Below are positions 1,398-40,281 of a DNA stretch of 64,000 bases, in pieces. The notes below the pieces were generated by a model, which did not search any database, was not told the DNA's origin, and was given only the letters and a program-made list of their open reading frames with translations. The stretch lies in contig JAXHMY010000002.1 in the NCBI GenBank assembly GCA_034520965.1, forward strand, positions 32,001-96,000, in the 5' to 3' direction. Position numbers and translations under genes: made by a program. Positions within the stretch are counted from its first letter, which is position 1; the number at the start of each line of letters is the position of its first letter. The DNA comes from Spirochaetia bacterium. GTDB lineage: Bacteria; Spirochaetota; Spirochaetia; DSM-16054; Sediminispirochaetaceae.

Positions 1398-3362
1398 CCC
1401 TAGTTCTGCAGCCCTTTAAATAATCCGACAAAATATTTTTCTTTCCCATAACAACATAGGGGAGATTTTTTTTAAATTTAACAACATATAATAGTTGCGT
1501 TGTGTTACGTTTTGTGCTATGCTCTTTTTATAGGGGAGGGGGCAGCATGTATTTGAAAAAAAGCACCTCGTCAAAGACAGGGCGTACGCAGCTTTCAATT
1601 GTGCACGGGTTTCGTGACAGCCAGGGAAAAACAAGGCAGAAAACGATTATGAGCCTTGGATATCTTGATGTGTTGGAAAAACAGTACGATGAGCCCATCG
1701 CTCACTTTGAACAGGTTGCAGAGCAAATGGATCAAGCTCGAAAGAGGAGAACCACACCATCGACCTTTCCATCTCTCCTCACTCGACTTTACCTCTCGGC
1801 ACTGACAACAGAAAGAACTTCGGCCATGTGGTCTTCTCTCATCTCTACCACGAAATGGAGCTGGACTATTTCATCAACAACCGCAGGCGCTACACCGATG
1901 CTCAGTACAATCACAACGCAATTTTCAAGATGCTCGTTTATTCCCGCCTCCTTGCCCCCGGCTCAAAGAAACGGGCATTTGAAAAGCGGAATATGCTCTT
2001 CGATAAAATGGATTTCTCCCTCGATGACGTATACCGCTCTCTTTCCTTCTTTGCACAATTCAAGGATCCGATGCTCCTGGCCATACATAAGCGGATTAAA
2101 AAGCTCTACGGCCGGGATACTTCACTGGTCTACTACGATGTGACCAACTACTACTTCGAGATATCTAAGCAGGATGAGCTCAGGCGTAAAGGGGTCTCTA
2201 AAGAACACAGGCCTGATCCGATCGTCCAGATGGGGCTGTTCATGGACACCGACGGTATTCCGCTGACCTACGGCTTGTATCCGGGAAATATGCTCGACAA
2301 GCAAACCCTCATTCCGATGATTCATCAGATCCGTAAAAAGTACGAACTGGGGCGGTTTATCGTGGTCGGCGATAGGGGAATGATCTCCGGGGATAACATT
2401 CGCCGGATTCTCATTGACCGTTGTGGGTACGTGCTCAGTTATTCAATACGGGCTGCTGATGCAGCCTTTAAGGAATATGTGCTTGATCAGAGTGAGTACC
2501 GGGAGATCGGCCGGGAAGGGTTCAAGATCAAGTCGCGCATCTACCCCAGAGAGATTTATGTCTCTACGCTGCAAGGCAAGAGACAGAAGATTTCGGTCAA
2601 TGAGAAGCATATTGTGTTCTACAGTCCTGACTATGCCAAGAAAGCAAAGGCGGACCGAGAGGCGGTGTTGTCGAAAGCGCAAAAACTCATCTCATCTCCT
2701 GCCGCCTATGCCAAAGCAAACTCCTATGGGGCTGCCAAATATGTGAAAGACCTCACCTTCTCCCCATCCTCCGGTGAACTGGTCGGTGATGCTAAACATT
2801 TCCTCATTGCCGATAAGGATGCTCTTGCCGAAGAAGAAAAATACGATGGCTATTACGCTATTGTAACCAGTGAGCTTGATAAGGAGGATGAGAACATCGT
2901 CGAGATCTACCGGGGACTTTGGAAGATAGAGGATTCTTTCAGGGTCACTAAAAGTGATCTTGAGACCCGTCCGGTGTACGTCTCCCGAGAAGATCACATC
3001 GAAGCACATTTTCTCAGCTGTTTTGTAGCTCTTGTGCTATTACGGTTGTTGGAGAAAAGACTCGGGTGCAAGTACCCTGTACAGAAGATACTCCAAAGCC
3101 TAAGGCGCAGCTCATGCTCACTATTGGAAGAGAATATGTATCTGTTTGATTATTATGACCAGGTGCTCTCGGATATCGGAGAGACTATGAGCATCGACTT
3201 TAGCCGAAAATACCGAACTGCCGGAGAAATTAAAAAAATCTTCGGCAGATCCAAAAAAAAGGGCTAAAACACAACAGTCTTGTGTTTTTAGTGCCCCCAT
3301 GCAATTTGTTATAAAGTAGTTAGTTACGACTCATATTTTGCTTTTTAGCTGCAAAAGTCGAG
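1398..3362 (+). mobile_element. IS1634-family insertion sequence
   Basis: Contains a transposase. Imperfect 15-bp terminal IRs: CCCTAGTTCTGCAGC (1398-1412) versus CTCGACTTTTGCAGC (reverse complement of 3348-3362). Flanked by a ~90-bp direct repeat. Confidence 0.85.
1547..3267 (+). CDS. IS1634-family DDE transposase, one frameshift near 1741
   Basis: N-terminus MYLKKSTSSKTGRTQLSIVHG joins ORF 1828-3267 if one A is added near 1741. Motifs YYDVTNYYFE, GVSKEHRPDPIVQMGL, VVGDRGM and YRGLWKIEDSFRVTK. Confidence 0.9.
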
Positions 3363-3453
3363 ATTATATACTTTAAAATCAGTTTGGAGAGTTGTCAATA
3401 AAAAAGTAATGGTTCAAACCATGGGGAATTGAAGCAGGGAGTTCAAATTACCC
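3363..3453 (+). repeat. Right copy of the long direct repeat
   Basis: Matches 1308-1397. Confidence 0.9.
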
Positions 3454-4681
3454 CCTCTATTAGAGTGTACCCACACTTTATTTTAGAGGAGGCCTGCCAA
3501 TGCTTATCCCCCATTTTGTCCCCATTCCGAATGTGAATATCACACCCAGCCACCTGACCACGGGCGCTGGTACTACACCAATGGCAGCTACAGACCCTGG
3601 CCCATGGGACGGTCACCCGTTTCAAATGCCTCGGATGCGGAGGAGGCTTTAGCGAGCAAACCTTCCGCCTGGACTACTATGTAAAGAGAAAGCTCGACTA
3701 TCAGGTGATTTTCGATCATATGACCAACTGCGGGGGAGTGCGTAAAACCGCCCGTATAATGGAGGTCAGCCACCAAGCGATCATCAACCGCTTGGGCCGC
3801 CTCGCCCGCCAGGCCATTGCCCTGCAGGCGGATATCCTCCAGGACTATGTTCCCTGCGAGGATCTGGTCACCGACGGCTTCGAGAGCTTTGTCAGCGATC
3901 AGTTCCAGCCGAATAACATTCACATCCTGGCCGGCAAGAGTTCACAGTTCTTTATCACCTTTGACTATGCCCATTTGCGGCGCAAGGGAAAGATGACCGA
4001 ACTGCAGAAGGCCGAACGTGACCAGCGGGAGAGGCACTACATCCGCAAGAGAATCTCCATTAGTCAGTCCTTCCTGCAGATTGTCGATTTGGTCGAGCAA
4101 TATGCGCAGAAGCGGCGACTCACCTGCCTTTACAGCGATGAGAAGCTCGAGTATCAAAGATTGGTCATGGGTTCGGATGTGCTCCAGAGCCTAAAAAGCG
4201 AGGGGAGGTTTGAGCATGTGAGAATCTTCTTCCCTTTTGGCGCGCACCATCGACAATCCACTTTTTTCTGTCAACTATCTGGACAGGCAATTTAGGAAGG
4301 ATAATGCCAATTATGTGCGCGAGACGGTCCGCTTCTCCCAGAATGTGAATAACTGTCTTGAGCGCATGGCGGTCTACCAGCTGTATCAGAATTATTTTAA
4401 GCCCTTTCGCATCGGAGATCCATTTCTTCAGAACTTCTCCCATGCCGAGGTGGCCGGTGTGCCCCGGGGTAAAATCGCGAGAGGGCTGCGGGGTATCTTT
4501 ACCATGCGCAAGTTCTACACGCATGTAAAGCTCAACTGGTCACAGCTGATGGTATGGGCACGGATGACCGGAACCCTGGATAAGTTCGACGGGATGTACT
4601 GGCCCAAATATGTGTGGATGTAACCTCCCTTACTCGCAGCCGGCGTGTGAAAAATTGGATCCCCCATGGTTTGAACCATTA
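3407..4681 (+). mobile_element. Unclassified IS1-like insertion sequence with 20-bp perfect terminal IRs
   Basis: TAATGGTTCAAACCATGGGG (3407-3426) is the exact reverse complement of 4662-4681. The IRs enclose one frameshifted, relatively GC-rich transposase-like ORF. Confidence 0.8.
3500..4623 (+). CDS. Putative DDE-type transposase (Zn finger, HTH, RNase H-like core); frameshifts near 3510, 3600 and 4230
   Basis: RBS GAGGAGG precedes ATG 3500. Reconstructed sequence FCPHSEC...RFKCLGCGGGFSEQTFRLDYY...GVRKTARIMEVSHQAI...VTDGFESF...YSDEKLEY...NPLFSVNYLDRQFRKD spans ORFs 3705-4295 and 4237-4623. Confidence 0.7.
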
Positions 4682-6706
4682 ATCTTTTTTCGCAAAATGG
4701 GAGAACTCCATCCCAAATGTCCCGCGCCCCTGGGTAATACTACGAAGAGCGGTCGAATAGCCGAACATCTGCGCCAAGGGAACAGAGGCTCGTACATGTT
4801 CCATGCTAGGCTTGCTTTCAAGACTTTCAATCAAGCCGCTGCGGCCAGTTAGATGGCTCATCACATCGCCTATAAATTCTTTTGGTGCCATTACATCAAC
4901 ATGCATTACCGGTTCCAGCAGGATCGGCTCGGCTTTCCGGCAGGCAGCATCGAAACCAAGGGAGCCGGCAGCTTCATAGGCAAAACTGGTGGCTGTCTGT
5001 TCGTCATATTCAGCATCAACCAGTGTCGCTTTAATATCAATAGACGGGTAGCCATACATAATGCCGGAGGAAAATGCGTTTTTTACCCCCCTTTCTACAG
5101 CGTCTTGATGCTCTCGGGGCAGTACCTTTTCATCGATATTACACACATACTGATCACCCTCGCCTCGGCTAAGTGGTTCTACCTTCAAGGTAATTCTTGC
5201 ATTGTTCTCCTTACCGGCAACAATTTTATGGAACTCTTCGGTATGAGTGGCTGTCTTTGAGATAGACTCACGGTAGGTGACCTGTGGGTTTCCTATCTTG
5301 GCATCTACCTTGAAGTCTTTCATGACTCGCGTTACCAGCACATCCAGATGCAGTTCACCCATACCGGAAATTATCAGCTGCCCGGTTTCTTCGTTTTCTT
5401 TTACAATAAAAGTGGGATCTTCTTGTTTAAGCAGCTCTAAGACCTTTTTCAGTTTCGCCTGGTCGGAAATGGTTTTAGGCTCGATGGCCACGTGAATAAC
5501 CGGCTCCGGGAACTGCATCTTTTCCAATAGAATTTTTTTTCCTTCCGATCCAATCGTATCTCCGGTTTGGGCAAGCTTAAAGCCGACTATCACTGCAATA
5601 TCACCTGCGCTTACCTTTTCCAGGGGCTCATTCCGGTTGGAGTGCATGCGAAGTATTCGGTTTACCCGTTCCCGTTTGTTTTTGGTAATATTGTAAATTG
5701 CAGTACCTTTTTTAATTTCGCCGCGGTACATTCGAATGAAACTCAATGAGCCTGCTTCCCGATCAGCTTGAATTTTAAACACTAGTCCCAGGGGCTGCTC
5801 TTTTTCATCCGCCTCGACGACTACCGTTTCCTCTGTTTTTACATCGATTCCATGAATCGGAGGGGCTTCCCAGGGAGATGGGAGATAATCAAGCACTCCA
5901 TCTAACAGCGGTTGCACTCCAATGTTTTTTAAGGATGCTCCCACAAATACCGGCACTATGGTCCTATTAAGAGTTTGAGTACGGATCGCCTGCTGGAGCA
6001 TTTCAACCGGGATATCCTTTCCTTCAAGATAAAGATCGGTAATATTTTCAGCGTAGGCAGAGACAGTATCGATTAGGTGTTCACGCCATTCCCCGGCTTT
6101 GGCTTTCCACTCCTCGGAAATTGGGCTGCGCTTCACCTCACTGCCGTAAGAGGTAGCTTCGAAATTTACTTCTTCCATACTCACCAGGTCGATTATGCCA
6201 TAAAAATCACCCTCCTTGCCCATCGGCAGGTATAATGGTAGGGGATTTGCATTTAGCTTTTCGGATATCTCTTCAACTACTGCATAAAAATCGGCACCCA
6301 GACGGTCCATTTTGTTTATATAGGCAATTCGTGGAATTTTATAGTAATCGGATTGATGCCATACTGTCTCCGATTGCGGTTCGACTCCTCCAACCGCACA
6401 GAATATACCAATAGCACCGTCCAACACCCGCAGAGATCGTTCAACCTCGGCGGTAAAATCCACATGCCCCGGGGTATCGATAATATTTATTTGGCAATCC
6501 TTCCAGAAACAGGTAGTTGCCGCGGAGGTAATTGTGATCCCACGGTTCTGTTCCTGTTCCATCCAGTCCATTACCGCCTCGCCGTCGTCGACCTCACCAA
6601 TACGATGACTTTTTCCTGTATAATATAAAATACGCTCGGTAGTTGTTGTCTTTCCGGCATCGATATGAGCCATGATTCCTATATTGCGCATAAATTTATG
6701 TGCCAT
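4679..6706 (-). CDS. fusA: Elongation factor G
   Basis: Motifs [37 protein letters not shown] and PQVTYRE. Likely start is ATG 6706. Confidence 0.95.
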
Positions 6707-35790: not shown

Positions 35791-36581
35791 GTACCCCTTC
35801 TTTTTTCAAAAAGTTGTTTGGAATCTCAGGGCAGCAAAGCGATACTCAAGGCGATGACTACGATAGTCTAAATTTTGAAGAACAGGATATGATTCGAGGG
35901 GTAGTAACCCTTTCAGATACTACAGTGAAAGAGGTGATTGTCCCACGTATAGATGTCGAGTTCGTAGCAATTGAATCAACCTTTAACGAGCTGATTGATA
36001 CCCTGGGCGAGGGGGGCTACTCAAGGTTTCCCGTATACAAAGACACAATTGATAATGTGGTTGGTATCCTTTATGTAAAGGATCTGCTGAAACAGGTGAA
36101 GAGCCAGGAAGATTTCAGTGTCGAAAAAATAATTAGACGCCCCTATTTTGTACCGGAAAGTAAGCGCCTTGATTCTCTGCTGCGTGAGTTTAAACGGAGA
36201 AAGGTTCATATTGCCGTGGCAGTAGACGAGTATGGCGGGGTGTCGGGCATTGTGTGCTTAGAAGACATCATTGAAGAGATAGTGGGTGACATACAGGATG
36301 AGTTTGACAACGAAGTGGAAGACATTCTAGAGATCGGAGAGGGAACGTATTTGTGTGATGCCAGAGTTGATATCGAAGATCTAAATGAAAAACTCAGCCT
36401 AATGCTTCCGGAGGAAGATTTTGATACCTTGGGAGGCTTTGTCTTCGACATGTTTGGAAAAATTCCCGTGAAGTACGAAAAAGTTAAATACAGTGGTATC
36501 GATTTTATCATTCAGGAAATGGATGGGCATAAAATAAAAACTGTAAAATTAGTACTTAAGGATAGCAACAGTGCCGCATAG
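35787..36581 (+). CDS. CBS/CorC-HlyC domain protein
   Basis: Motifs YSRFPVY, VDEYGGVSG, EDIIEEIVGDI and DTLGG. Confidence 0.9.
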   Translation: MSTPSFFKKLFGISGQQSDTQGDDYDSLNFEEQDMIRGVVTLSDTTVKEVIVPRIDVEFVAIESTFNELIDTLGEGGYSRFPVYKDTIDNVVGILYVKDLLKQVKSQEDFSVEKIIRRPYFVPESKRLDSLLREFKRRKVHIAVAVDEYGGVSGIVCLEDIIEEIVGDIQDEFDNEVEDILEIGEGTYLCDARVDIEDLNEKLSLMLPEEDFDTLGGFVFDMFGKIPVKYEKVKYSGIDFIIQEMDGHKIKTVKLVLKDSNSAA

Positions 36582-38603
36582 ATGCGGAAAAAAAAGAAAG
36601 ATAGGGAGTGCTCTGAGTCTCTTAATCCTTAGTTGGATATTGTTAGTGTCGGCTGTGAATCCGGCGGTTGACCTGTATCAGCAGGGTGAAGAACGGCTTC
36701 AATCCGGCGATGTGTACGGGGCAATTGATCTTTTCAAAGAATCTCTTTCTTATAATGCGGATTATGTTGATCCGTTATACGGCCTGGGACAAGCTTATTT
36801 TAAATTGGAAGAATATGAGCAGGCCCTTGTGTATATCCAGCAAGCACGAAGGTTTGACAGAAACAATACCAGCATCACCGCACTTGAAGGAAGAATTAAT
36901 ACCGGTCTGGGAAAGTATTCGGAAGCGGAGAGAATTTTTGATAAAATTCTTGAAAAAGAGCCCCACAATCTTGATGCCCAATTTGGAATGGCCGAGCTGC
37001 AAGCCGCGATGGGGAGCGTCGAAAATGCGATCGCCGGGTATCGAAAGGCCTTGGAATCGGATCCATACAACCGCCGCGGTTTGTTATCTGCAGCGCTCTT
37101 GTACAGCGCCCAGAACAACCTTCAGGAGGCTGCCGAGCTAATACAAACGGCAGTCGACAGCTATCCGGAGGATCCTCGGGTGCACTCTATTGCCGCTGAG
37201 TACTACTTTAAAAGGGATAATCCCCGTAAAGCTGAAGAGCATGCCCGTCAAGCACTTCAATTGTATTCAGAATCTGAAGATGCAATATACGTGCTTATAC
37301 GAATTCTGTTCGCACAAAACAGATTCGCCGATGCCATAGAAGCGGTAGAAAAAAATATAAATATAGATCGCGATAAGCCGCTTTTATGGTACCTACGGGC
37401 AAAGGCGTATTGGAAAACCGGAGATCAGCAACGGGCTTTGGAGAGCTTTTATACCGCCTTAAGCCTTAAACCAAGTGATGAAATTACAAGAATCGCTCTA
37501 GAAGAGTTTCTTATGGACCGTTTTGCAGGGGATTCCCAAGAGAGAAAAAAGGCCGCTGATATAAGGTTTGAGTACGGTGCTTCCTACGAACGGGATAACC
37601 GAATTGAACTTGCCCGACAAGAATACCGTCGGGGCCTGATGCTTCACCCCTACAGCCGTGAAGGACGGCAAATGTATGCGGCCACCTTCAAACGGTCCGA
37701 TAACATTGGGAAATACCTTTCTATTTTGAAAGTACTTGAGACCGAGGGAAACACAAGCCAAGAGATACAAGATGAAATTGAGATTTACACAAGCTTACGC
37801 GAAGAGAGTATTGCCCAATCGTGGGATGTCGATCAGTTTGCCATAGATCGCTATCGCTATAAGATAGCACTTTTTACCAATAATAATCAGTCCCAGGTAA
37901 TTCATCTAAAGGCGGAAGAATATTTAACAAGTTACATGCAGGGAATACTCCAGGGCAATGAACATCTTGATATCGTAGATACCGGTTCCGTTGAATCCTT
38001 TGCTGAGGCCTTTAGAAGGGCACGAGAAACAGATATCGATTATTTTATAGTTACTACTTATCGAGAGGGTGAAAGGGCCTTCAAAGGCTCTGCAACAGTG
38101 TATAACGGGTCTACCGGAACCGTTATAAAAACTTTTAATAGTTTGCGCACTGGAAATAGACGAGTCAGTCAAGCTCTCATACGAATCGCCGGGACATTCT
38201 CTGATAGCTTACCACTGCGGGGCAGGATTTACCGAAGACAAAATAACACGGTTTTACTTGATGTAGGGATTTCCAAGGAGTTTCTCCTGACGACCGGTTT
38301 AATGTCATTCGCGGAGAAATTTTAGAGCTTGCGGATAACCAATTTGCCTTAGAGTACAATCAGCGTTATATTCTAGGTTACATAGAGATAAGCAATGTAG
38401 ATGATCTTCTTTCTGTGGGCCAAGTGAGCACAGATCAATTTTTCGATTTAATAAATCCCGGGGATGCGGTGATTCCAGTTAACAGCATCAGCGAAGAAGC
38501 AGGGGCTGAGGGAAATGCAGGGGCTGCCCAAGAGGGTACTGATCTTCGTGAATCTCCCGTAATTCCCTCGGAGATCTATAAATCGCTGCTCGAGGTTGAG
38601 TGA
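36571..38603 (+). CDS. Exported TPR protein, frameshift near 38270
   Basis: Many TPR repeats. An alternative frame from about 38270 (FQGVSPDDRFNVIRG...) is open and runs into ORF 38415-38603. Confidence 0.8.
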
Positions 38604-38639
38604 TTCAGCTATTCTGATATGTTGTGACCCTTGTCAAGT

Positions 38640-38910
38640 ATTCTATAGTAAAAGTTTATAGTACCCCCTTCTTTATAAGACCGAGAGGAGAAAAAGATAG
38701 AGGAATACATGCAACCGTCGATGTACAGACTGATATTCGCGGATTGGTTACCTGCAGTGCAATGTAATCGTCGGGAGCTTGCCTCTGTCTCAATTCAAGG
38801 ATTCCTCCTACCAAAAAGAGGGCCTTCAGAATAGCTCGAGGATTCTCCTTCGCTTCTTCTCGTATTCCTCTATCCATTCTACCCCTCGGTTTCAAAACTC
38901 AGTTAAACCT
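38640..38910 (-). ncRNA. Putative bridge/seek RNA region of the IS1111-type element (boundaries approximate)
   Basis: 3' non-coding region containing segments that match the target and donor junctions (38826-38836, 38786-38795, 38730-38736). Confidence 0.7.
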
Positions 38911-40008
38911 CTACGTTGTTTGTTCTCTCATTATTCCCCAAATAAAACCGCAAAGCTCACGTGCAACTGCCGTAGCAACCTTCTGTGAAGGTTTTCCTGT
39001 AAACAGAAGGTGCTGATATCGCCGCGAAAGTCTTTTCCCTGCTTTATCGGCATACGCTCTTGCCTGAGGATCTACTTCTCGTCTTCGTTTTATCAGTCGC
39101 TTTGAGGAGGGATCATAGGTGCGACAATGCCAGGCACTTTCTACCAACAGGCGCCTCAAACGCTTTATTTCCTGATTTTGTAATACCGTTCTGACGACGA
39201 CGTTCTCCACTGGAGTGTTCAGCCGGTACCAAACCAAGATAACTCATGAACTGCGAGGGCTTGGCAAATCGCCGAAAATCACTTATTTCGGCAATGATTG
39301 ATAACGCGGTAAAGGTTCCAATCCCCTTAATGGCCATCAGCCTTTTCACTTTTCCCTATAGCGCCCTTCAGAGGCAAGGGCTTCAATGCGCTGGTCGATT
39401 CGTTTAATATTTTCAGTGATGTAGTCCAGATGCCCCAGGTACTCCTTTACAGTCTCTTTCTGCAATGAGTTGAGCTCTGCGATGGCTTTCTTAATCCACA
39501 GTCGGTGTTTTCCTGTCCAGATTATCCCCATCACGGTAGATCAGACCATGACGAAGCAGAAGACTGAGAATTTTTCTGCTTGTAGCGTCTCTGCTCGTCT
39601 TTGTAATCATCCCTGACGTGCAGAAACTCACGCACCGCCTCATCGGCTCTGGTGGGAATGTGAACCCCTGTCAACTGTCCGGAACGCAAATTACGGGCAA
39701 GCATGTCGGCGTCCCGTTTGTCGGTTTTTATTCGCTCTGATGGTTTTTTTGGAATCAGTCCCGGGGCTGCAACAAGACAGGCAATGCCCATACCTTCGAG
39801 CATCCGATAGGTACTGTAACCGCTTGGCCCTGCTTCATAGCAGCACAAAGCTCACCCTTTTCCTGGAGCTTCTTAAATATTTGCGCAGCTCGCTTTCCCT
39901 GTTTTTCTTCTGAACGACTATCGATGGGACCTGTTCGCCATTCTTATACCCGACGATGAATACCGTCTCCTTGTGGACATCCATTCCTACATAAATTACA
40001 CTGTTCAT
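38911..40008 (-). CDS. IS110-family recombinase/transposase with multiple frameshifts
   Basis: RBS GGAGG, then MNSVIYVGMDVHK, CYEAGP, KTDKRDA, GIGTFTA, SYLGLVPAEHSSG (catalytic Ser region), RRLLVESAW and AVAREL, spread over four ORF fragments plus an unlisted N-terminal frame. Confidence 0.9.
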
Positions 40009-40106
40009 AGTGGCCTCCTGTTTGTATGTGGCGTGTTTGCCATTGTGTTTTTACCATTTTGCAGGCTAATCCACGATTTTGCAAACACGGGGGTCACTTC
40101 ATATTG

Positions 40107-40236
40107 TCTCATTTTGGATAGTGTAATTACACTATCCAAAATGAGAATGCCTCCACACGTTGAGATATATAAAAATTTGCAAAGAAATTGATGCGAATTC
40201 TAAATTTGGAAGTCAAAAGACTTCCAAATTTAGAAT
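40107..40236. repeat. Second pair of AT-rich palindromes (48-bp spacer); the first is interrupted at its left tip by the IS
   Basis: TCTCATTTTGGATAGTGTAA|TTACACTATCCAAAATGAGA (40107-40146, perfect) and ATTCTAAATTTGGAAGTC-AAAA-GACTTCCAAATTTAGAAT (40197-40236). Confidence 0.9.
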
Positions 40237-40252
40237 CGCTGTGAGTGATTTA

Positions 40253-40281
40253 TTGACATATATTTCCCTATATCATATAGT
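40253..40281 (+). promoter_or_regulatory. sigma70-type promoter of the gap operon
   Basis: TTGACA (40253-40258), 17-nt spacer, TATAGT (40276-40281). Confidence 0.75.

Follow-up and report, generated by a model that had tools for sequence, protein, structure and literature searches.

The window analysed here comprises 64,000 nucleotides of a spirochaete genome (positions 32001-96000 of contig C2 in the host genome, G000:C2:32001-96000). It features on the minus strand an insertion sequence (IS) of the IS110 superfamily, which is nested in the terminal repeat of a host MITE (Table 1). A TPR-repeat gene lies at 36571-38603 on the plus strand; it is apparently split by a frameshift near 38310—possibly another consensus error of the kind discussed below for the recombinase gene—and its second frame ends at a stop inside the 9-bp duplication of the MITE. 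Just outside the MITE on the other side, a near-consensus promoter TTGACA-17-TATAGT is predicted from the sequence at 40253-40281 (plus strand). The genes downstream of it are presumably gap, pgk, tpi, and secG, as judged by their translations. The MITE with the inserted element is located between this promoter and the TPR gene and disrupts neither. Other repeats of the window are a DDE_Tnp_1 transposase element at 1398-3368, which has two genome copies, and an adjoining 1,290-bp element with terminal repeats at 3403-4691, which has about ten. A second 1,300-bp repeat family occurs in about five genome copies. In the region G000:C3:40600-79600, about twenty copies of a 135-bp repeat are placed between small genes, with a few more on C8 and C2, resembling an integron-like cassette array.

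Table 1. Coordinates of the insertion sequence, its predicted RNA, and the surrounding MITE in the window
Feature	Position	Strand	Remark
IS110-superfamily element proper	40109-38616	minus	1,494 bp
Core AG, left junction	40108..40109	minus	alignment of three genome copies
Core AG, right junction	38614..38615	minus	
Left subterminal inverted repeat ATGAAGTGACCC	40091..40102	minus	7 nt inside left end (core + ACAAT)
Right subterminal inverted repeat	38619..38630	minus	3 nt (ATC) from right end
Outward-facing -35 TTGACA (predicted)	38632..38637	minus	sequence match
IS110-family DEDD recombinase gene	38911..40008	minus	ATG 40008 to TAG 38911, in fragments
Predicted bridge RNA, ~210 nt	38680..38890	minus	closing stem enclosing target and donor hairpins; ends approximate
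Right-target guide AGCUAUU-CU	38828..38836	minus	complement of core + 7 nt of right target; target loop, 5' strand
Left-target guide AAUUG-AG	38789..38795	minus	same sense as left target + core; target loop, 3' strand
Target-loop handshake base	38788..38788	minus	follows left-target guide; third base of the AGA first proposed as core
Right-donor guide AUUG(C)-AC	38757..38763	minus	four bases complementary to right donor +5..+2
Left-donor guide AUAUC-AG	38730..38736	minus	same sense as left donor + core
Main part of host MITE	40110..40241		two perfect palindromic hairpins, CAGC end
Last 8 bp of MITE = right target, AATAGCTG in element orientation	38606..38613		
MITE 9-bp target-site duplication, left copy AATCACTCA	40242..40250		
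MITE 9-bp target-site duplication, right copy	38597..38605		overlaps probable TPR-gene stop codon

The element has an IS1111-type layout of 12-bp subterminal repeats, end extensions of 7 nt on the left (AGACAAT) and 3 nt on the right (ATC), and a predicted 3' non-coding RNA. The left and right repeats match in 10 of 12 positions, and the non-coding parts extend over 102 nt upstream and 295 nt downstream of the gene. The initial annotation had drawn the element from 38607 to 40148; these ends include parts of the MITE, and the proper span is the one in Table 1. Abutting the two ends would create a putative promoter, TTGACA-17 nt-GACAAT, with 10 of 12 consensus promoter bases; a promoter scan is blind to it because it arises only once the ends join. 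The circle joint, from right end to left end, was absent from the contigs of four runs, a form of data that drops rare forms.

The host genome contains three full copies of the element and one 155-bp fragment. The full copies have identical ends in the alignment, from AG-ACAATATG through to CATATC-AG, and sit at three different sites, which by sequence is evidence of transposition. The copy on C3 carries an intact frame of 365 aa (G000:C3:264339-265433), and that on C9 has numerous indels. The 155-bp fragment (G000:C2:545716-545869) retains the end of the gene together with the first half of the RNA, in which the right-target guide lies; the sequence adjoining it is taken here to be an istA of IS21 type.

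Fragments of the recombinase in the window copy match Pfam PF01548 and PF02371, and the intact C3 copy scores 252.6 bits with NCBIfam NF033542. The latter features both a RuvC-like DEDD domain and a Tnp domain with the catalytic serine, the window copy being fragmentary. Across 42 homologues, D10, E59, D100, and S267 are invariant and D97 is near-invariant. The window copy carries six single-base indels, near 39164, 39349, 39520, 39571, 39847, and 39874. All six are missing from the C3 copy and from the contigs of run X1 and of run X3; run X2 covers five of them and lacks these as well. Run X1 may be the source sample, since its contigs contain the right flank of the window without differences as well as the left junction of the C3 copy; its depth is 12 over the element and 4 and 6.7 over the two flanks, a roughly two- to threefold excess. 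The six frameshifts are thus probably assembly or consensus errors, with collapsed contigs leaving some doubt for this particular copy. No repair of the frame, as envisaged in the initial annotation, is required because an intact natural copy exists, which had been missed there together with the nature of the target as a multicopy MITE end.

The interrupted repeat bears the marks of a MITE: it is short, non-coding, and multicopy, with terminal inverted repeats and a flanking duplication. Its ends read CAG...CTG, and the insertion point is 8 bp from its other end, inside the terminal repeat. Both junctions read as first annotated, and the empty target deduced from them is real: excising the element in silico restores a 142-bp unit with a single mismatch to an uninterrupted copy at G000:C2:217479, and AATCACTCA flanks this restored MITE on both outer sides in the window. 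The left flank (40241-40110) has 38 genome matches of at least 80 nt, and 21 of these 38 carry a perfect 9-bp flanking repeat. A wider pattern yields 33 paired copies of 123-175 bp with duplications matching in at least 8 of 9 positions. The MITE is present in 7 of 9 genomes of the same genus. At least three related subfamilies occur in the host genome, with a common CAG(C/G)NATTCT end, differing hairpin interiors, a length of ~140 bp, and 9-bp duplications. A search for an autonomous partner among 24 unpaired ends, three DDE_Tnp_1 matches, and 87 long repeats of this genome (86% complete) yielded none. Nine Rfam matches were obtained, all to miRNA-precursor models far under their gathering scores; they lie within the MITE palindromes, and the RNA has none. 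A contig of run X3 joins the flanks 38606 and 40243 without MITE or IS, with nearly both 9-bp repeats and three letters between them. This joint may be a footprint left by excision in a related strain and is too weak to be counted as support.

Two of the three genome copies of the element sit in a MITE end. For one of these, the error-rich C9 copy, the 9-bp flanking duplication is not recognisable. The C3 copy is located outside any MITE, in the last codons of a gene, at a guide-like site with three mismatches. The 14-mer predicted by the two target guides described below has 24 genome sites with at most one mismatch, 22 of which are MITE arms; 500 shuffled guides gave a mean of 1.1 sites and a maximum of 8.

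Homologous loci were drawn from related genomes, metagenomes, and viral contigs. An end-calling script found both ends in 108 of 185 loci, which correspond to 102 distinct insertions with 81 different tails. Eight of these tails were removed (the query, one with an internal deletion, three with short flanks, and three for short flanks or 90% redundancy), so that 73 were tested. To call the ends, the script demanded a left core of A[GA], a right end resembling CAT, and repeats agreeing in 9 or more of 12 positions. The conservation seen in core and repeats is therefore partly built in, as for the 9-12 of 12 matching repeat positions in the 73 homologues. The guide columns were unused in end-calling, and the targets were unused in the alignment. 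The permutation figures given below overstate independence because the homologues are kin; sister elements in the tree bear differing targets and guides.

The core had been proposed as AG(A), of which the AG holds and the third A does not. Uninterrupted MITE copies have a single AG at the empty site, and there is no true target duplication. Of the 73 homologues, 63 have AG at both junctions, a figure that the end-calling pattern partly dictates. The base after the core at the right junction is free (G in 22, C in 21, A in 18, and T in 12), which rules out AGA as the core. It appears as such at this locus because donor +1 and target +1 are both A. The third A of the RNA segment is instead the handshake base, in the sense in which Hiraizumi 2024 (PMC11208158) describes such positions: the column of base 38788 equals right donor +1 in 71 of 73 homologues (permutation mean 43.7, maximum 55) and right target +1 in only 16 (mean 16.5). 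In the window element, this handshake is neutral since donor and target share the A. In the donor loop, the base that follows the left-donor guide agrees with right target +1 in 37 of 73 homologues (mean 18.0, maximum 28) and is unmatched in the window element.

Four RNA segments had been singled out as guides in the initial annotation, and all are found where it placed them: AGCTATTCT (38836-38828) for the right target, AATTGAGA (38795-38788) for the left target, ATTGCACT (38763-38756) for the right donor, and ATATCAG (38736-38730) for the left donor. When 250 nt of the non-coding region were mononucleotide-shuffled 5,000 times, the 9/9 match of the right-target segment recurred in 0.06%, the 7/7 match of the left-donor segment in 1.8%, and the 7/8 match of the left-target segment in 16%; a match of at least 4/7 to core plus right donor, the level applied to the remaining segment, recurred in 100%. 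Only the right-target and left-donor segments thus beat chance by sequence alone, and the other two rest therefore on covariation.

This covariation was assessed without the window element, in the 73 non-redundant homologues, and the guides follow both target and donor. The right-target guide, which matches in 9 of 9 positions in the window, has columns that pair with right target +1..+4 in 67, 59, 62, and 56 of 72 homologues (expected 18.6-20.3); the window element uses a 7-nt register, and a 6-nt register is commoner among the homologues. The left-target guide has one mismatch at the window site and none to other MITE variants. It equals left target -1..-4 in 68, 71, 48, and 33 of 73 (permutation means 41.6, 25.1, 18.7, and 17.2; maxima 52, 38, 34, and 29), and position -5 is without covariation (16 versus 16.2). 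The left-donor guide equals left donor -1..-3 in 73, 73, and 70 of 73 (means 53.5, 59.9, and 58.4; maxima 61, 65, and 65). The right-donor guide is complementary to donor +5..+1 in 40, 45, 41, 56, and 41 of 73 (means 27.5, 21.4, 31.0, 49.7, and 35.0; maxima 37, 34, 39, 57, and 44), a modest covariation in which three of the five positions exceed the maximum of 2,000 permutations. Of the right-donor segment first proposed, AUUG(C) is retained, but its CU is out of register and pairs with the core only via a bulge; in the family register, pairing at the core positions of this guide is seen in 56 of 73 homologues for the G and in 3 of 73 for the A, and the window has AC. As judged by these comparisons, the target loop covaries with both target strands and the donor loop with both donor strands, strongly through its left guide and modestly through its right guide, which upholds the initial reading as a bridge or seek RNA.

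The structure alignment comprises 41 of 74 tails. In a hand-built two-hairpin model, 90.2% of 1,060 cells are paired and 17 of 26 pairs are compensatory; 0 of 500 shuffles scored as high, and sliding the model along the alignment lowers pairing to 31-48%. Its weakest part is the inner donor stem (70%), partly because of a one-column shift in the spirochaete rows. RNAalifold places compensated stems that bracket both target guides and leaves the right-donor guide open, and it pairs three left-donor guide bases in a small hairpin without compensatory change. The folding check suggested with the initial annotation is borne out by the comparative structure, which places the segments in two loops. 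The minimum-energy fold of the window RNA alone buries both target guides in stems, and single-sequence folding is misleading as a loop test. Under a constrained fold, opening all four guides costs 6.9 kcal/mol, compared with a median of 7.7 in the homologues. A location of the guides in two loops is supported by the comparative models, from which the placement is taken. The RNA model R1 scores 123 bits at the window element, with the identical C3 copy being part of its training set; in the genome, it finds three sites, all beside the gene, and no RNA-only copy. One metatranscriptome contig of a variant covers 38666-38908, with the strand not given by contigs and with DNA carry-over being possible, so that it hints at expression weakly at most. 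The X19 RNA contigs were set aside as too weak to serve as support.

The reading favoured here, with a probability of roughly 0.92, is that of an RNA-guided IS of the IS110 superfamily, belonging to the ISEc45/ISCARN28 cluster and having an IS1111-type layout, which is inserted in the terminal repeat of a host MITE. Its ends, core, and MITE nesting, the covariation of its guides with target and donor, and its conserved fold are taken from sequence comparison. The circle, promoter activity, RNA binding, and chemistry would follow by analogy with work on IS621 and ISEc11. The element ends would be joined into a circle at the AG core, where the junction promoter TTGACA-17-GACAAT would drive the recombinase and the RNA downstream of it. 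This RNA would fold into two hairpins, of which one would pair through its internal loop with both strands of the target AATTG-AG-AATAGCT, and the second likewise with the two strands of ATATC-AG-ACAAT, the circle junction. Strands would then be swapped beside the core by the DEDD/serine recombinase, without a true duplication. Since the guide would aim at an end motif common to dozens of intergenic MITE copies, many harmless landing sites would be available, and near matches elsewhere are used as well, as by the C3 copy with its three mismatches. Recent preprints favour, in the parts available, a copy-out route via single-strand circles; the present data are compatible with either cut-out or copy-out, and nothing in them distinguishes the two.

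Among the alternatives, the one that survives best—albeit as an unlikely one—holds that only the target hairpin is a functional guide, that the protein mainly recognises the donor ends at the subterminal repeats, and that the second hairpin is accessory or processed away. It draws on the 82-nt target-only RNA described as sufficient for ISEc11 movement, on CazIS110-1, for which 90% of transcripts are described as target-loop-only RNA, and on the element itself, which has long repeats and a right-donor guide of 4 nt that leaves the core unpaired in register. However, the left-donor guide follows every change at donor -1 and -2 (73/73 each), the donor hairpin shows compensatory pairs, and excision and integration of CazIS110-1 are described as needing the full-length RNA. 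Still less probable is a recognition of the MITE as an extruded hairpin or via a bound protein rather than by guide pairing only. Such recognition would suit an insertion point at the foot of a perfect ~45-bp palindrome and the preference of other family members for REP and attC hairpins, as published. Against it, the C3 copy occupies a guide-like site outside any MITE, the insertions in genomes G104, G399, and G052 retain the end motif with no MITE left end by the flanking-repeat test, and the guides track linear sequence across the homologues. It is hardly credible that the matches arose by chance or are left over from local duplication, with the tail being only a terminator-rich spacer in a dead element: the left-target and right-donor segments are each expected by chance and the window copy as assembled has six frameshifts, but the guide columns vary together with unrelated targets across 72-73 homologues aligned blind to those targets, the fold is conserved, and an intact copy exists.

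The targeting of MITE ends by such elements recurs among relatives. A 50%-identical element in G234 has 5 of 5 fetched copies in the end of a ~125-bp repeat with the same terminus type and flanking repeats of 9-10 bp, and the elements of G002/G036, G026, G104, G052, and G399 have right targets of the same end motif. On the tree, with the query labelled by its off-target copy, MITE-end-targeting elements form two supported clades with three changes as labelled; the tree leaves the relation between the two clades unsettled, and a single origin of this targeting does not emerge from it. Under the pattern used, the end motif was counted 55 times in G026, 19 in G104, 6 in G399, 4 in G052, and once in G234, compared with 2, 0, 4, 0, and 2 in five control genomes. 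By these counts, only some of the genomes that host MITE-targeting elements are enriched for it. In run X3, a close variant has one base changed in each target guide, giving AAAUG and AGCGAUU (among the 40 of 61 differences listed). Both changes fit other MITE-end variants, and the host genome holds eight exact sites AATTG-AG-AATCGCT and seven AAATG-AG-AATAGCT.

Some related loci have lost or rearranged their RNA region. The loci L007/L008 (G036:C81, G002:C32) and L004/L011 (G026:C26) are about 70% identical and frameshifted, with the target hairpin deleted via short homology or nearly the whole tail gone, and they retain both ends in a MITE-type site despite this loss. The G002 and G036 loci share identical coordinates and end sequences, yet the two genomes are placed in different families. 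At L037 (G139:C255), the guide RNA region is partly duplicated and then interrupted by transposase-like sequence, which closely resembles what we take to be an IS1634-like transposase of the window's genome.

The nearest named element is ISEc45, with a recombinase 44% identical over 362 aa and the same RNA scaffold in its tail as detected by R1 (28.8 bits). ISCARN28 is 43.5% identical to ISEc45 and falls into the same cluster of the published identity matrix, where it is labelled IS1111; by eye, it shares the YEAGP, KTD-RD, HSSG, and REL-GF-W motifs with the present recombinase. In contrast, the recombinase of IS4321—the one canonical IS1111 member compared—is only 27% identical over 289 aa, with a long branch in the tree, and R1 does not detect its tail (best 4.9 bits). 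In the published matrix, ISCARN28 is 14-26% identical to the canonical IS1111 cluster. By sequence identity to ISEc45, the recombinase thus belongs with ISEc45/ISCARN28 and not with canonical IS1111, so that the initial label of an IS1111-type recombinase element applies to the layout but not to the enzyme. The present element differs from ISEc45 and ISCARN28 in belonging to a spirochaete subclade that has guides of its own and targets a MITE end. An ISfinder group label for ISEc45 was not found in published supplements, and the papers found include no biochemical or structural study of this recombinase cluster. The bridge RNA of ISCARN28 is drawn in Durrant 2024, whose Supplementary Table 5 may bear on the grouping.

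The ISEc11, ISKpn4, ISPa11, and ISPst6 elements treated in Siddiquee 2024 (PMC11187229) share with the present element a downstream non-coding region, subterminal repeats of 11-13 bp, extensions of 7 and 3 nt, and a junction promoter, the latter predicted here by sequence. The order of the guides, with the top-strand complement 5' of the bottom-strand match, is also common to both; the right-before-left order of the initial annotation is therefore correct but not new, being stated there for IS1111 seekRNAs. Differences from those elements are the longer recombinase (365 aa compared with 330-350) and a simple two-loop donor hairpin that covaries. Measured against IS1111 in the strict sense of that account, the repeats, extensions, layout, and guide order agree, and the protein does not. 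With IS621, as described in Durrant 2024, Hiraizumi 2024 (PMC11208158), Hiraizumi 2026 (PMC13626964), and PDB 8wt6, the element shares a target loop followed by a donor loop, two guides in each loop—the second followed by a handshake that matches the partner DNA after exchange—and a CT core once it is read on the other strand. It differs from IS621 by an RNA located 3' of the gene, an AG core relative to the gene, handshake bases that follow the bottom-strand guides, long subterminal repeats, and a weak protein similarity (E 1.9e-8 over about 100 aa).

Homing of an IS110-superfamily element to the repeat of another mobile element is also described for IS1111 of Coxiella burnetii, of which 20 of 21 copies lie in QMITE2 (Wachter 2018, PMC5896051; review PMC10969869), a repeat of 150-190 bp with direct repeats of 7-11 nt. 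The present MITE is unrelated, the site targeted is formed by the final 15 bp of its terminal repeat instead of a GTAG REP, and the guide that explains the choice of target is read directly here. Further published cases are IS4321/IS5075 in Tn21 terminal repeats and IS1383 in IS1384 repeats, and an AG crossover has been published for ISPpu9. Both the mechanism, with RNA-guided IS110/IS1111 recombination reported in 2024, and the earlier reported targeting of MITEs and repeat ends are hence already known, and the element is a well-supported new example of them. Its value is that of a clean natural test case: one genome offers an intact copy, unoccupied targets, and an off-target insertion, and there are in addition naturally occurring guide variants and 73 homologues whose ends have been called.

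Read on the opposite strand, the element has a CT core and its long guide first, and the handshake comes after the second guide of each loop (71/73 for the target, 37/73 for the donor). IS621 features, according to Hiraizumi 2024 (PMC11208158), a CT core, a 9-nt first guide, and a short second guide after which the handshake comes, with the same arrangement in the donor loop. By this analogy, we infer one machine acting on an inverted donor site. With moderate confidence, the 3'-RNA guide order may in this cluster be regarded as the IS621 machine working on a donor inverted relative to the gene, and not as a mechanism of its own. A spirochaete lineage of these elements may also have held its guide on the end motif of a single MITE superfamily in several host families, its single-base guide changes following the MITE variants. 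The strand-flip argument was not found in the literature searched, where Durrant 2024 may bear on it in Extended Data Fig. 10c (implicitly) and Supplementary Table 5. If it is true, the strand that is cut and exchanged first would be the template strand of the gene, and the design rules of IS621 would transfer after a strand flip. The opposite-strand handshake offers a cheap and direct prediction by which to decide whether elements with a 5' RNA and those with a 3' RNA exchange strands by one mechanism—a question left open in the account of Siddiquee 2024 (PMC11187229).
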